From positions 1 through 16,437 of the forward strand of contig JANLPS010000251.1 of assembly GCA_031367385.1 (NCBI GenBank): a stretch of 16,437 bases of DNA, read 5' to 3'. This document shows positions 8,964 through 16,318 of this stretch, piece by piece. Under the pieces are notes generated by a model, which was not told the origin of the DNA, searched no databases, and was given only the letters and a program-made list of their open reading frames with translations. Position 1 is the first letter of the stretch. Each line of letters begins with the position of its first letter. The translations under genes and the position numbers were made by a program. The DNA comes from Archangium sp. Lineage in GTDB: Bacteria; Myxococcota; Myxococcia; Myxococcales; Myxococcaceae.

Positions 8964-9118
8964 TCGCTTGGAGTCGTAAAGTCAACGACTTTGACGCACA
9001 TCACCTCACCCTGACGTCGCTGGCGGGCGCTGATCTGAAATCGCTCCCGAGGCGGTAAATCGGCCTCAAAAAACTCTGCCTTTACAGGCGGTTCGGTCTG
9101 ATCAGAATGCGCGGCGGC

Positions 9119-11845
9119 ATGTCTGAAGTTCCTCGCATCGCGCCAGTGCTCGCACCTTCGCCCACTCCTGACTCGCGTACGTTGACGCGTTTTCACGAGC
9201 GGTTGTTGGCCGAAGAGCTGACCACCCGTCTTGGCGACAGCTCAACACGCGTGGTGCGTGCGCTCTCTGACGCGCGAGTCGACTTGAACCCGCACCAGCT
9301 CGAGGCGGCGGTCTTCGCCATCGACGCGCTGACCCGGGGCGGCTGCGTGCTGGCCGATGAGGTCGGGCTCGGCAAGACCATCGAAGCGGGCATCGTGATC
9401 GCCCAGCTGGTGGCCGAGGGCAAGAACCGCATTCTGGTGTTGGCGCCGGCGACGCTGCGCTCGCAGTGGCAGGCAGAGCTCAAAGAGAAGTTCGACCTCG
9501 AGTCGATGATCGTCGACGGCCGCACCGTGCGAGCGACGGGCAACGTGTTCGATCAGCCCTGCCCCGTCATCATCGCCTCGCACCCCTTCGCCGCGTTTCG
9601 GCCCGAGCTGCTGGGCCAGATCACGTGGGACCTGGTGGTCATCGACGAGGCGCACCGGCTGCGCAACGCGCACAAGCCGACCAACAAGATGGGCAAGGCG
9701 CTGCGGGCGGGCCTGAAGAGCTCGCCGAAGCTGTTGCTCACTGCGACTCCGCTGCAGAACAGCTTGTCTGAGCTGTTCGGGCTGCTCTCGCTGCTCGACG
9801 AGCAGATTCTCGGGCCCGAAGAGGCGTTTCGCGCGCACTACCCGGTCGACCCCGATCACGGCGGGTTGCCGGAGGCCGCTTCGAAAGAGCTGCGCGCCCG
9901 ACTGGCGCCGGTGGTTCAGCGCACGCTGCGACGTCAGGTCAAAGAATACGTGCGGTACACGAATCGCCGCTCGGTGGTCGAAGACTTCACGCCGTCGGCC
10001 GAAGAGCAGTCGATCTACGAAGACGTGAGCGAGTATCTGCGGCGCAACGAGTGCTCGGCGATCGAGCCCGGCAAGCGCACGCTGCTCACGTTGGTGTACC
10101 GAAAGCTGCTGGCGTCATCGACGTTCGCGATCGCACCCACGCTGCGGCGGTTGGCCGAATCGCTCGAGAACAAGCTCAAGTTCGCCAAAGCGGGCCAGGC
10201 GGCGACGGGCCTGCTGTTCGAGCCTGACGAGACCAAGCAGTACTCCGAAGAGGCCGAAGACTGGGCCGATGAAGAGGCCAAGCCCCGCGGCAACGTGCTC
10301 GCCAACATGGAGCGCGAGGTCTGGGAGCTCAAGGGCTTCGCCGACCGCGCCGAGAAGATTCGAATCAACGCCAAGGGCGAGGCGCTCAAGCGGGCGCTCG
10401 ACCGGGTGTTCACCGTCGCCCGCGCGCACCAGTGGCCTGAGAAGGCGGTCATCTTCACCGAGAGCAAGCGCACCCTCGAGTACCTCTACGACCTGCTCGG
10501 CCGTTACGGGTTCGAGGGCAAGATCGCGAAGCTCACCGGCGACGCGGGCAGCCCCGAAGCGCGCAAGGCGTTGATCGACGAGTTTCGCGACAAGGCGCAG
10601 ATTCTGCTGTCGACCGAGGCGGGCGCCGAGGGGCTGAACCTGCAGTTCTGCAACCTGGTGGTGAACTTCGACCTGCCGTGGAACCCGCAGCGCGTCGAGC
10701 AGCGAATCGGCCGGTGCCACCGCTACGGGCAGCAGCGCGACGTGGTGGTGCTCAACTTCTTGAACCGCTCGAACGCGGCCGATGCGCGGTTGTACGAGCT
10801 GCTCGAGAAGAAGCTCAACCTGTTCGACGGCGTGTTCGGCGCGTCAGACGAAATTCTCGGAGCGCTGGAGAACGGCGTCGACTTCGAGAAGCGCGTGCTC
10901 GAGATCTACCAGTCGTGCCGAATGCCCAGCGAGATCAACGCGGCCTTCGATGCGCTGCGAAAAGATCTCGAGACCCGAATCGATCAGAAGATGACCGAAG
11001 CCCGCTCGACGTTGATCGAGCGCTTCGACGGCGATGTGCGCAAGCGGTTGCGGGTCGCGGGCGAGTCGGCGCAAGCGGCGCTGACCAAGCGAAAACAGAG
11101 CGAGAAGTCGTTCACAGGCTCAGTGTTGGGCTCGGCGGGCAACGGGCGGCGGCAGTTGGCGCTGGCGGCGAAAGAGGTTCGCGCCCGGGCGGGTGATGCG
11201 GTCAGTTACCTGGCCCTCGACGGCGCGACGATGCCGGGCAAGCTCGAGCACCTGCAAGGCCGCGAGGGCTGGTGGTTCGTCTACAAGTTCGAAATTTCAG
11301 GGCTCAAGCCAGAAGAGCGGCTGGTGCACCTGGTGATGGTCAAGCATGGCGAGGGCTTTCGGGTGTTGCCGGTGGCTGACGGCGAATTGTTCACCCGGGT
11401 GACTGCGCGCGAAGAGACGGTGCGAAAACCGGCCACGGTGTCGGTGTCGCTGCAGCACGAGGCGGCGTTGATCGCGGCCCGTGATGAGATCGTTCGAGTG
11501 GCGGAGCGAAAGAACGCGCTCGAGCTCGACGCGTCGAAAGATCGGGCCGACCGGTTCGGTGAAGACACGTTGTTCACTCCGCGGCAGCACGTCGAGCGGG
11601 CTCGAGGCGATTGGGAGCAGGCGCGCCTGGCGGTGCTCGGGGTTGAAGAGCCTTCGGAGCGGATCAAGGCTCGCGCGAACGCGGAGCGGCTCGAGCGGGA
11701 GTACCGAAGGAAGTTGCAGCAGCTGCGACAGGCCGAAGATCAACGGTATGCCGACAAAGACCGAATGTTGGCTGCGCTGAGCCTCAAGGCCAAGGTGACG
11801 ACGAATCGATCACTGGTCGCCTCGGCGTACTTCTGGGTGACGTAG
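9119..11845 (+). CDS. SNF2-family (SF2) helicase/ATPase with C-terminal coiled-coil region
   Basis: VDLNPHQ, LADEVGLGKTIEAG (motif I), IDEAH (II), LTATPLQN (III), STEAGAEGLNLQ (V) and PWNPQRVEQRIGRCHRYGQ (VI). Start is either 9107 or 9119. Confidence 0.93.
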   Translation: MSEVPRIAPVLAPSPTPDSRTLTRFHERLLAEELTTRLGDSSTRVVRALSDARVDLNPHQLEAAVFAIDALTRGGCVLADEVGLGKTIEAGIVIAQLVAEGKNRILVLAPATLRSQWQAELKEKFDLESMIVDGRTVRATGNVFDQPCPVIIASHPFAAFRPELLGQITWDLVVIDEAHRLRNAHKPTNKMGKALRAGLKSSPKLLLTATPLQNSLSELFGLLSLLDEQILGPEEAFRAHYPVDPDHGGLPEAASKELRARLAPVVQRTLRRQVKEYVRYTNRRSVVEDFTPSAEEQSIYEDVSEYLRRNECSAIEPGKRTLLTLVYRKLLASSTFAIAPTLRRLAESLENKLKFAKAGQAATGLLFEPDETKQYSEEAEDWADEEAKPRGNVLANMEREVWELKGFADRAEKIRINAKGEALKRALDRVFTVARAHQWPEKAVIFTESKRTLEYLYDLLGRYGFEGKIAKLTGDAGSPEARKALIDEFRDKAQILLSTEAGAEGLNLQFCNLVVNFDLPWNPQRVEQRIGRCHRYGQQRDVVVLNFLNRSNAADARLYELLEKKLNLFDGVFGASDEILGALENGVDFEKRVLEIYQSCRMPSEINAAFDALRKDLETRIDQKMTEARSTLIERFDGDVRKRLRVAGESAQAALTKRKQSEKSFTGSVLGSAGNGRRQLALAAKEVRARAGDAVSYLALDGATMPGKLEHLQGREGWWFVYKFEISGLKPEERLVHLVMVKHGEGFRVLPVADGELFTRVTAREETVRKPATVSVSLQHEAALIAARDEIVRVAERKNALELDASKDRADRFGEDTLFTPRQHVERARGDWEQARLAVLGVEEPSERIKARANAERLEREYRRKLQQLRQAEDQRYADKDRMLAALSLKAKVTTNRSLVASAYFWVT

Positions 11846-13511: not shown

Positions 13512-13548
13512 GCGCCCGCGCAGCCAAAACCTCCGTCTGCGCGGGCGC
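13512..13548 (-). terminator. GC-rich hairpin downstream of the hypothetical gene (possible terminator or RNA-stabilising stem)
   Basis: gcgcccgcgcag, 13-nt loop, ctgcgcgggcgc (12-bp perfect stem), 9 nt after the stop at 13558. No U-tract. Confidence 0.5.
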
Positions 13549-13557
13549 GCTGTGAGG

Positions 13558-14301
13558 CTACGAGGGGCCGGGCGCGGGTTCTGGCTCAATCACCGGGTCG
13601 GGGCTTCGCTTATTCGTTCGCGAGAGCAGCGATGGCACGTGTTCGTCGACGTCTTTTTTGAAGATGCGTGCGCCCTCGGCCCACAGGTCTTCGTGGGCCA
13701 TGAGCACCAGCGTCCACACGCGGGACTGGTCGTCGAGCGCTGCGGTCAGGGCGTCATTCGAACGTTCACGCGCCCCGGCAGGCTTCAGCATCGCCAATAA
13801 CCGATTGGCGCGGTCGACCATTGCATCGATGGAGGCCGCGCCGAGCATGAGTCGGCGCCTGGCTTCGGGTACCCGATGGCAGAGTTCAGCGATGTCGAGC
13901 ACGTCGCGGGCGGCGTCGAACGGACCCTTGCCTGCGTAAATGCGTTCGACTTCGGCGGTTGGCACGATGCCGACCTTGCCCCAGAGGGTCAGGTTCGCCA
14001 TCAGCAGGTCGCGATCGCCGAAGACCTCGCCGGTGAGCTCGCGAACGCCTGACACGGGGAGACGCGCACGGTCGACCTCGGTGGTCGTCTCGACGAGCGC
14101 CTTCAGGTACCGACGGAGCTTTGTGCCCGCCCACGCGTACCCTTTGGTGACGAGCTTCAGCTGCGGAGCGTGCTTCTCGACGGCAGTGATGCCGAGGTTG
14201 GCGTTGTAGAGCACCAACTCGAGGTCACTGCTGAACTCCTTCAGCTCAGCGGGTTTTAAGGACAACGCATCAGGTCGAACTTCGTCGTACGCCGACTTCA
14301 T
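13558..14301 (-). CDS. Hypothetical all-helical protein (myxobacterial-type family)
   Basis: Strong AGGAGG 5 nt before the ATG at 14301 (MKSAYDEV); 247 aa. The pattern I..GKGPFDAARD...RVWTLV..AHEDLW..G...VDEHVPSL resembles uncharacterised Myxococcota proteins from recall; not verified. Confidence 0.8.
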   Translation of the reverse strand: MKSAYDEVRPDALSLKPAELKEFSSDLELVLYNANLGITAVEKHAPQLKLVTKGYAWAGTKLRRYLKALVETTTEVDRARLPVSGVRELTGEVFGDRDLLMANLTLWGKVGIVPTAEVERIYAGKGPFDAARDVLDIAELCHRVPEARRRLMLGAASIDAMVDRANRLLAMLKPAGARERSNDALTAALDDQSRVWTLVLMAHEDLWAEGARIFKKDVDEHVPSLLSRTNKRSPDPVIEPEPAPGPS

Positions 14302-14430
14302 TGGAGCCTCCTGCGGTTTGGGTTCGTGCTGCCCCCCTTTCACGCGAGGTCGCAGAAGGTATTCACGGGTGGTCGCACATTTATTTTCGATTTCTGAAGT
14401 GCCCGAAATGGCTGGTGTTTGCCGAGCAGC

Positions 14431-14614
14431 GGGACTGATTCAGTGATCTGAATCGACAAAAATGGCGGCCTGAGACTGCCGCAGTCTCCTGACAAGCAAA
14501 AAAGCGCGAAACCGAGACTTCGCCAGTCTCCCAGAAGGGGCTGCAGCGCTCGGAGGAGACTGAGTCAGTGATGGCGCTCGTTCAAGAGGGGTTCCAGGAG
14601 ACTGCCCAAGTGAT
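14431..14614. repeat. Array of five 17-bp palindromic boxes G(A/G)GACT-N5-AGT(CTC/GAT) with 41-42-bp period
   Basis: Copies start at 14431 (gggactgattcagtgat), 14472 (gagactgccgcagtctc), 14514 (gagacttcgccagtctc), 14556 (gagactgagtcagtgat) and 14598 (gagactgcccaagtgat). The intervening 24-25 nt are largely unrelated. Confidence 0.85.
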
Positions 14615-14724: not shown

Positions 14725-14740
14725 TGGCGCGCTGTTTGCT
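14725..14740 (+). promoter_or_regulatory. sigma54 (-24/-12) promoter
   Basis: TGGCGCG-CTGT-TTGCT matches TGGCACG-N4-TTGCW with exact GG-N10-GC spacing, 31 nt upstream of the ATG at 14772. Confidence 0.75.
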
Positions 14741-14771
14741 CATCGCGCTGACACACCCCCTGGAGGCTCCA

Positions 14772-15467
14772 ATGAAATGGATGATCGTACCCCTTGTCGT
14801 CGCTGCATCGACCGCTCTCGCGGACAACCAACCCGTCGTGGAGCACAGCACGCGCACCTTCTACAATGACGCTGAACGCGGTGCGTGGAGGCCCGCGCCG
14901 TTGCCGACGAGCGACGCGCTCGCGACCATCGACACTGAAAAAGAATACGACGTCTCGATGCGTCGATTCTATTTGATGCCCGTCATCGGAGGCGAAATCA
15001 CCACCCTCGGCGGCACCTTTCAGCGCAACTCCGACGGGAGCGTCAGCGCGCAGACCGCTGCGAGCGGCGTGTATGGCGCTCCGTCGTTCGGAGCGTTGCT
15101 CGGGTGGAGGCTCGGCGGGTTCAATGTCGGCGCTCGCTACCAGGGCTCGGTGTACGGCGACACGAGGCTCGACCGCCTCATGCTCAACAAGGTCTACGGC
15201 GAAATCGGCTTCAACGCCCGGCGCGGGCGCGCCATCTTCAACGGGTACCTCGATGCGGGCTGGGCCTTCGCGAGCAGCTCGGGGCAACCTCTGCGCAACG
15301 GCATCGGCGGCAAAGCTGGCGTCGCCGTCGACTTTCTCGCCACCCGCTACTTGAGCTTCGGCCCGGGCCTCGAGTTCGACGTTCAGGGGTACGCCACCGA
15401 CAACAGCCCGACCTGGGTCGCGGTCTACGGCGGTTCAGCGTTTCTGCGCATTGGCGTGCAGCTCTAA
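14772..15467 (+). CDS. Probable outer-membrane beta-barrel protein (small, about 8-stranded type)
   Basis: GGAGG RBS. Signal peptide MKWMIVPLVVAASTALA. Gly/aromatic amphipathic strands (FGALLGWRL, FNVGARYQ, YGEIGFN, YLDAGWAF, AGVAVDF, SFGPGLEFD) and terminal strand AFLRIGVQL. Confidence 0.78.
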   Translation: MKWMIVPLVVAASTALADNQPVVEHSTRTFYNDAERGAWRPAPLPTSDALATIDTEKEYDVSMRRFYLMPVIGGEITTLGGTFQRNSDGSVSAQTAASGVYGAPSFGALLGWRLGGFNVGARYQGSVYGDTRLDRLMLNKVYGEIGFNARRGRAIFNGYLDAGWAFASSSGQPLRNGIGGKAGVAVDFLATRYLSFGPGLEFDVQGYATDNSPTWVAVYGGSAFLRIGVQL

Positions 15468-16318
15468 ACGCGCGGGCTGTCGAGAAAGACAGTCGGGCGT
15501 TCTGCGCCCGTGCCGTCCCACTCCACCGTGAAGTCGCGGGCTCGAAGGACTTTGACGATCTGGGTTCCCACGCGACGCATGTCCTTCTCAGCTCCCGATG
15601 GCGCACCCCAGAACGCCAAGCTCAGCCTCCCGACCGCCTTCGCGCGGTCGAGGTCTTGGCGCGTGTAGAAACAAAACCCCGTGAGGCCTTGTGATGCCCC
15701 ACCTTCGTCGTGAAACGCCTGCGAGCAATCGGCGAAGCCATCGTCTTGCGTGACGCCCACATCGTGGAGCGCGATGAGGCCCCCTGCGCGCAGCGCTTCG
15801 AAGGCGGCATCGAGCCGCTTTTTTGCAGCACGCCACCGAGCGGCGCTCAACCTGACATTCTCTGGTGCTGGAGCACGCGGAGGCGGTGATGCTTGACCGG
15901 TCAGCCGCGCAAGCAGCTGCTTCACCTTGGGCAGTCGAGCGTTCAAGATGACGTGGTTGCCCTGCGCGTCGTGCACGTCTGGCTTGGCTCCCGCGGAGAG
16001 CAAGGTCTCAATGGGGCCGAGCGACGATGAGAACTCGGCGGCCAGGTAGAGCGGCGTTCGCCGGCGTTCATCTGACGCTAGCTCGAGGAGCGCTCCGGCT
16101 TGGATGAGCAACTGCATGACCTCGCTGATGGCTGCTGGCGACCCTCCGTCAGTGCCCATCGCCGCGCACTGGAGTGGCGTGAAGTTGTATTCGTTGACCG
16201 CATTGACGGCCGCATTGTGAGCGAGGCAGGCGCGCACCGCCGCGATGTCTGCGGCCCGAGCAGCGTCGTGAAGATCGTTCGTGGGCTTCTTTCGAGGCGC
16301 AGGTTTTCGACCGGCCAT
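15464..16318 (-). CDS. Ankyrin-repeat protein fused to a DUF6891-like C-terminal domain
   Basis: Ankyrin motifs LHDAARAAD, FTPLQCAA and RTPLYLAAE...LLSAGAKPDVHDAQG. The C-terminus RLDAAFEAL...GLIALHDVGVTQDDG...GFCFYTRQDLDRA...LSLAF...EWDG matches my recollection of DUF6891. GAGG RBS; the stop overlaps the convergent gene's stop by 4 nt. Confidence 0.8.
   Translation of the reverse strand: MAGRKPAPRKKPTNDLHDAARAADIAAVRACLAHNAAVNAVNEYNFTPLQCAAMGTDGGSPAAISEVMQLLIQAGALLELASDERRRTPLYLAAEFSSSLGPIETLLSAGAKPDVHDAQGNHVILNARLPKVKQLLARLTGQASPPPRAPAPENVRLSAARWRAAKKRLDAAFEALRAGGLIALHDVGVTQDDGFADCSQAFHDEGGASQGLTGFCFYTRQDLDRAKAVGRLSLAFWGAPSGAEKDMRRVGTQIVKVLRARDFTVEWDGTGAERPTVFLDSPRV

Follow-up and report, generated by a model that had tools for sequence, protein, structure and literature searches.

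A non-coding array of five phased dyad boxes in the window (the whole 16,437-nt stretch of Archangium sp. DNA analysed here, lying on the contig we call C308) belongs to the left-hand of its two flanking genes and not to the divergent gene that carries a sigma54-like motif, an assignment that is strongly supported. The array is real and gene-linked, and its pairing with the gene is apparently undescribed; a literature search, mainly of openly accessible main texts, found no paper on such an array–gene pairing. Arrays of the same period and of differing sequence recur beside paralogues of the gene, and likely mark a system not described before, with each protein predicted to bind the array belonging to it. 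Our best reading, to which we assign a probability of about one half, is that the boxes are phased DNA sites bound by the product of the adjacent gene, with the binding, the oligomeric state and any regulatory effect all being predictions. The features of the locus are given in table 1.

Table 1. Features of the array locus, in window coordinates.
Feature	Position	Strand	Remarks
GC-rich hairpin directly after the stop codon of the left gene	13512..13548	-	likely terminator, judged from sequence
Left gene, 247-aa all-helical protein of family A	13558..14301	-	no Pfam family; 14 members in genome
Predicted ECF-type promoter of the left gene, GTGAATA-N15-CGTG	14341..14366	-	family consensus ends CGTC
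A-rich stretch between array and promoter	14378..14394	-	kept in C258 paralogue; possibly UP-element-like
Array of five dyad boxes, core ACT-N5-AGT	14431..14614	.	period 41-42 bp
Sigma54-like motif of the divergent right-hand gene	14725..14739	+	judged outside the module
Divergent right-hand gene, 231 aa, signal-peptide-like start	14772..15467	+	no Pfam family; judged a bystander

The boxes start at 14431, 14472, 14514, 14556 and 14598, with spacings of 41, 42, 42 and 42 bp, and their centres lie 73, 114, 156, 198 and 240 bp upstream of the -35 motif of the left gene. Two of the five are perfect palindromes (GAGACT-N5-AGTCTC), the other three carry the right arm AGTGAT, and the 24–25-nt spacers between them differ in sequence. 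All of this agrees with the description in the sequence-only reading that preceded our analysis, and it is far beyond chance: the intergenic gap, shuffled 20,000 times, gave chains of ACY-N5-RGT cores at 40–44 bp of at most two (29 shuffles) and never of three, versus five observed. The same reading had named a genome-wide dispersed repeat as the outcome that would undo its interpretation. The motif is no such repeat, its original box pattern having no other match in the genome (7.97 Mb, 562 contigs); with the relaxed core, chains of at least three boxes occur at exactly three loci, namely the window, C258 (five boxes) and C7 (four boxes), the last being a cognate array without a gene. Three DNA sequencing runs spanning the window array and one covering it from 14489 onward, from two studies and possibly one strain, show no differences in it. 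The DNA occurs in sediment metagenomes; ESM Atlas clusters together with one Polyangiaceae label place the host in the Myxococcota, and no close relative turned up among named genomes.

Other repeats occur in this genome. Dyads resembling GTCACTTTNAAAGTGAC occur in pairs, with 46 bp between the two, at five places (C5:9853 and 12077, C106:8578, C143:1388, C197:6072) and represent a dispersed element different from the window boxes, and a REP-like family, GTGGTTCGACAGGCTCACCATGAGA, is often found in 39–44-bp tandem runs (C90, C187, C203, C301, C388, C441, C443, C447). In the window itself, the start and ribosome-binding regions of the two divergent genes (14297–14316 and 14757–14776) are near-identical over 20 nt and form a 90% inverted repeat 440 nt apart.

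The closest paralogue of the left gene, on C258, is 88% identical and keeps five homologous boxes in the same place at spacings of 42, 41, 42 and 41 bp. Between the two loci the boxes are conserved, the spacers have diverged and the far flank is unrelated. The sequence-only reading had offered the possibility that a sigma54 activator controlling the right-hand gene uses the boxes as its enhancer, and a sigma54-like motif does lie 121–288 bp from the box centres. However, C258 and C7 have retained the array with neither a sigma54 motif nor a right-hand gene present, and such a motif was found within 600 bp at only one of 16 array loci. Moreover, the right-hand gene has a single weak homologue among 120 genomes, with neither boxes nor a sigma54 motif in the 600 bp upstream of it. 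Based on these three observations we assign the array to the left gene and regard the enhancer interpretation as highly improbable. Genome-wide, sigma54-like motifs are mildly enriched (95 versus 65 in a shuffle). The window also encodes a SNF2-type helicase with a long C-terminal extension (9107–11845) and an ankyrin-DUF6891 protein (15464–16318).

The genome contains two unnamed families of helical proteins, family A with 14 members including the left gene and family B with eight intact members, and comparison of the family B and family A profiles gives a probability of 1–3%. Upstream of the paralogues we found the motif GTGAATA-N15-CGTC, which has 39 sites in the genome against five in one shuffle, 18 of the 39 being followed by a family A or B gene. 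The motif resembles the mapped ECF26 promoters of Sinorhizobium as given in the accessible text of that study, with -35 GGAATA and -10 (C)GT (PMC6180224), and there are 63 matches to sigma region 2 in this genome. Arrays were scored by the best autocorrelation lag upstream of a gene, a lag of 40–44 bp counting as a hit, for 20 genes of the two families, of which 18 have the strict motif and two, added by hand, a variant of it. The best lag was in this range for 16/20 family genes, as compared with 0/21 other genes with the promoter motif and 54/1000 random windows. Three family members are outside this set: C356, with 42 as its best lag; C433, a broken gene without one; and C332, which extends past the end of its contig.

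Given the contrast between the family genes and the other promoter-motif genes, we conclude that the arrays do not come with the sigma regulon, and we rejected the regulon as their explanation. What the arrays track is the gene family, not the class of promoter or the adjacent genes, which upholds one half of the second proposal of the sequence-only reading, the tie between the array and the adjacent helical protein. Genes with the promoter motif and no array likely constitute an ECF regulon. The 21 further sites matching GTGAATA-N15-17-CGT[CG] (e.g., C65:7857, C232:36900, C301:5274, C349:8936, C428:80933) include several in front of small secreted or lipoprotein-like genes without arrays.

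The family arrays sit about 40–250 bp upstream of the promoter motif and combine a fixed period with a locus-specific sequence. Array sequences are unrelated between loci, with the exception of the close paralogues C308/C258 and C46/C457 and, weakly, C376/C381, so that a single common regulator would not explain them. Thus, of the suggestion that arrays of GAGACT-N5-AGT boxes with a period of about 42 bp might recur beside homologues of the left gene, the period held, arrays of 41–43 bp recurring beside family genes, and the sequence did not. The flanks of the family genes are unrelated, the stop codon is often followed by a hairpin, and no neighbouring gene recurs within about 1.2–1.5 kb of the array-bearing loci. 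Coding repeats were rejected because the periods include 40, 41, 43 and 44 bp, which are not multiples of three. Palindromes in the array units are common, not universal, being better than those of shuffled sequences (p ≤ 0.05) in 6/21 arrays of this genome and 7/25 foreign arrays.

We propose that the array is the upstream part of an array–promoter–gene cassette. The boxes, four helical turns apart, would be read as double-stranded DNA and bound cooperatively by the helical protein of the adjacent gene, presumably in the form of a dimer or small oligomer, the period being set by its geometry, and this binding would tune the predicted ECF-type promoter of the gene itself. Each paralogue may have drifted with its own array, leaving some 20 cassettes insulated from each other, with unit sequences turning over by tandem duplication and homogenisation. 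The proposal draws on the four-turn period, the conservation of boxes while spacers drift, the change of array sequence with the paralogue, the fixed place on the promoter side and the lack of any other partner gene. The basic character of families A and B (median pI 9.5 and 9.6, respectively), with a Lys/Arg-rich tail, is consistent with it. Counting against it, the window protein itself has a pI of 6.2, unit palindromes are significant in only the minority of arrays given above, and the protein has no recognisable DNA-binding domain. Its AlphaFold2 model (138 sequences; pLDDT 95.3, pTM 0.79) is a compact all-helical bundle with a longest helix of 39 residues and no beta strand. A structure search (VIA) returned generic helical bundles only, the best being talin R4 (Z 8.4, rmsd 3.3, 101 aligned), with catenins also found; these matches are below the level counted meaningful for helical proteins and exclude nothing. 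Pfam searches with the window gene and 30 relatives and a PDB sequence search gave nothing over the cut-off, and the window protein had no match in the phage collection searched.

By analogy, the module would work most like the sopC–SopB centromere or KfrA with its repeat operator, yet it fails the defining features of both. The sopC–SopB centromere of the F plasmid consists of about 43-bp tandem units, each with an inverted repeat, beside the gene for the binding protein. The cassettes share inverted-repeat units of about this length adjoining the gene of a putative binding protein, but have no ParB domain or ParA neighbour, and there are many arrays per chromosome, each of another sequence. 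We rejected a ParB/SopB centromere system since no such Pfam family was found in 30 members and no neighbour recurs within the interval given above. KfrA of plasmid RA3 is, in the accessible part of its description, an alpha-helical protein that represses its own promoter via repeats, several copies of which are needed for tight binding; its operator has five 9-nt repeats overlapping a sigma70 promoter on a plasmid, and KfrA works with partition proteins (PMC7783346). As far as that description goes, the two have in common an alpha-helical protein with repeats at its own promoter, binding being predicted in our case, and they differ in that here 17-bp dyads 42 bp apart lie upstream of an ECF-type motif on a chromosome, in about 20 paralogous cassettes with differing sequences and no common neighbour. 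A KfrA-type long coiled coil on a plasmid partition module was rejected, the window protein being a compact bundle (longest helix 39) and the cassettes being single genes in varied surroundings.

Intergenic 41–42-bp arrays without a family gene are also present in this genome. Those cognate to family arrays match the upstream regions of family genes at E values of 1e-34 to 4e-3. The match is clear above shuffled controls for 6/20 upstream regions (C46, C457, C242, C373, C468, C335) and marginal for 4/20 (C308 and C258 with C7; C381; C544); one marginal score comes from a locus without an array (C411), and the remaining upstream regions have none. Homology between gene-linked and gene-less arrays ends shortly before the promoter motif, and there are one to three gene-less copies per array type. 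The C7 array, which no promoter motif follows, ends about 120 bp from the end of its contig, and a gene beyond is possible. Further 42-bp arrays without an adjacent family gene are found at C69:14780, C425:2700, C552:5260; C494:17440, C544:7640; and C29:4240, C471:16586, C165:1, and in C552 and C544 inserted ORFs separate the array from a family gene 0.5 and 1.2 kb downstream of it, respectively. We report cognate gene-less arrays as a feature of this genome; three queries in other genomes found extra array copies at contig ends only, or none.

If each protein binds its own array, the gene-less copies may be relics of gene loss or extra docking sites. They could also be the progeny of a selfish, mobile-like cassette whose protein causes its own array and cassette to be copied or amplified, in the way that RAYT acts on REP. 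Such an element would account for the 14 and 8 paralogues in unrelated surroundings, for the patchy multi-copy spread, for the finding of no family A match in the one congeneric genome (87% complete), itself too distant for a comparison of empty sites, and for cognate arrays in intergenic gaps, and a Porphyromonas MITE with tandem internal repeats provides a precedent, the main text of which gives neither a repeat length nor a gene link (PMC2575886). We consider this origin unlikely in view of the lack of a nuclease, recombinase or polymerase fold in the protein, the lack of a common 3' end or terminal repeats in the cassettes, the small number of gene-less copies per type where hundreds might be expected, and the outcome of the three queries in other genomes. 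In REP/BIME elements, the RAYT transposase is flanked by its own repeat class, further copies of which lie in intergenic gaps. The cassettes resemble them in both respects and differ in having no HUH nuclease, head-to-tail units at a fixed period and few gene-less copies; REP-RAYT was rejected on the basis of no Pfam hit to an HUH tyrosine transposase and no beta strand in the model.

The other half of the second proposal of the sequence-only reading was that the array is transcribed. In this case, the array would be expressed from its own promoter and cut into, or used as, RNA units of about 42 nt that partner the adjacent protein, like type III antitoxins or TIGR arrays. A fixed unit length with free sequence would also fit RNA arrays, as would their occurrence on either side of the gene, and the window array with its flanks forms a more stable fold than shuffled sequences do (z -2.6), mainly via pairing between boxes. 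The antisense strand is the more stable in 12/14 foreign myxobacterial arrays, which may be plain G-richness. However, only 3 bp can pair in three of the five window boxes, many dyads have centres of 0–2 nt, and the sole promoter motif that is conserved lies downstream of the array and is directed away from it. There is no G-U bias in the dyads either, mismatches on the gene strand comprising 45 G-T versus 43 A-C (non-independent cells from the 37/51 arrays with a clear dyad), a balance expected for DNA dyads. Rfam has no family match to the array, its single hit (E 2.2) lying outside it, and in many relatives the units are 92–99% identical with no variable spacer. Together with the invariance of the window array in the DNA runs covering it, these observations disfavour the RNA half, which we judge improbable, while leaving the array–protein link intact. 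Array periods of CRISPR, TIGR and VIPR are 60–79, 18 and 5 nt, respectively, in the accessible portion of a recent preprint (bioRxiv 10.64898/2026.10.21.760802). As characterised there, these systems also have a periodic non-coding array beside a cognate protein gene, but the present loci have no Cas, Nop-domain or other known effector, and no variable spacers in most relatives. A CRISPR/TIGR-type guide array, in the sense of a known repeat family with its cognate effector gene, was rejected given no Rfam match, no effector domain in the gene and no common neighbour.

Looking beyond the phylum, we scanned 185,579 genomes for the DNA motif by itself and obtained 49 loci; no family A or B protein is encoded at any of them, and most are REP-like doublets of Ktedonobacteraceae. 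These inverted doublets, GGGAGACC-N5-GGTCTCCCCTACA (L140–L188), are abundant in that family and are also found in single Clostridia and Ruminococcus genomes. At one locus of the Bacteroidota (L154), seven 41-bp units with GAGACT-N6-AGTCTC directly precede a gene of DUF6261 (PF19775). DUF6261 genes of Bacteroidota have 41–43-bp arrays at 25/34 loci (24 upstream, one downstream), the loci scored being the best 34 of 138 matches in 28 genomes, versus 1/60 distal control windows, and our literature search found no description of this pairing. The domain is present in 27/251 genomes, with at least 14 copies in the richest. Like families A and B, these are helical proteins of about 240 aa with a patchy, multi-copy distribution and upstream arrays; unlike them, their median pI is 5.7, which counts against DNA binding, and they have no sequence or profile homology to either family. 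The DUF6261 Pfam model has no match in our genome at E ≤ 1 and none among 30 family A members, and profile–profile probabilities are 0.4% with family A and 0.9% with family B. We therefore rejected membership of the two families in DUF6261 on sequence and profile, no match reaching the Pfam cut-off. In the ESM Atlas, DUF6261 is the nearest named family for family A (0.81) and the second nearest for family B (0.86), feature scores that serve as leads only. What recurs is a DUF6261-type array module, i.e. a 41–43-bp non-coding array, differing in sequence by locus, beside a gene for a helical protein of about 240 aa. Repeats of 42 bp may also lie upstream of Porphyromonas hagB, a point that is given no weight as evidence here.

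Boxes that are nearly identical (GAGACT-N5/6-AGTCTC) precede the genes of proteins whose identity to each other is undetectable or only 26–30% (the window, L003 and L154). A general host factor, such as a nucleoid protein or architectural activator, might accordingly read the spacing or shape of the DNA, the genes being merely co-regulated stress or surface proteins. The occurrence of one period in two phyla whose promoter types differ and the absence of a DNA-binding motif in the window protein also point this way. We give this explanation a low probability, as none of the 21 other genes with the same promoter motif has an array, and as the conservation of boxes with drifting spacers between C308 and C258 argues for sequence-specific reading that differs by locus. 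That different phyla have a period of four turns in common, with no such restriction on sequence, means a strong physical constraint of hitherto unrecognised origin. More speculatively, the arrays may reflect a cross-phylum class of helical-bundle proteins, lacking any known DNA-binding motif, that each recognise their own 41–43-bp array in modules programmable by evolution, amounting to some 20 orthogonal address systems in one genome, and that also dock at or bridge to cognate arrays at other chromosomal sites, or generate them; this extension is tentative and we would lean against it. If each protein does read its own array, the families would represent a new fold for DNA recognition and a naturally occurring set of orthogonal protein–site pairs, about 20 of them in one genome sharing one promoter type, useful for studies of specificity evolution and for synthetic circuits. 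It would also be the first handle on DUF6261 and the two unnamed myxobacterial families.

Within the phylum, family A was found in 64/301 genomes and family B in 6/251 genomes of the order, own genome included, and the window protein has 424 matching representatives at 50% clustering. We scored 92 foreign loci after dropping seven duplicates and the loci of our own genome, about 20 listed matches, mostly from a single-copy clade, being left out. The best lag was 40–44 bp (at 0.55 or higher) at 22/92 of these loci, several of which share a genome or an array and so are not independent, as compared with 5/1000 random windows. A mostly single-copy clade of family A with conserved neighbours has arrays at 0/31 loci; outside this clade they occur at 22/61 loci, comprising 18/55 of family A and 4/6 of family B. 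The 18 family A arrays include ten upstream and nine downstream of the gene, one gene having both, and the GTGAATA promoter motif is not conserved outside our genome. An array downstream in 9/18 cases is ill suited to a simple operator, and the single-copy clade likewise counts against binding of the array by its own gene product, as do the similar boxes in front of unrelated proteins. Such binding does not explain well the downstream and gene-less arrays, the absent DNA-binding motif or the similar boxes, all of which keep the three alternatives considered above, array RNA, selfish amplification and a general host factor, in contention. Members of the array-less clade (L005, L008, L010–L016, L060–L084) have a longer open frame of about 315–345 aa, and the clade is possibly a domesticated form of family A. 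Family A genes of another genome, G044, have upstream higher-order arrays of 85 and 127 bp (L019:576–1146 and L028:396–1090), which are built of alternating 42- and 43-bp units.
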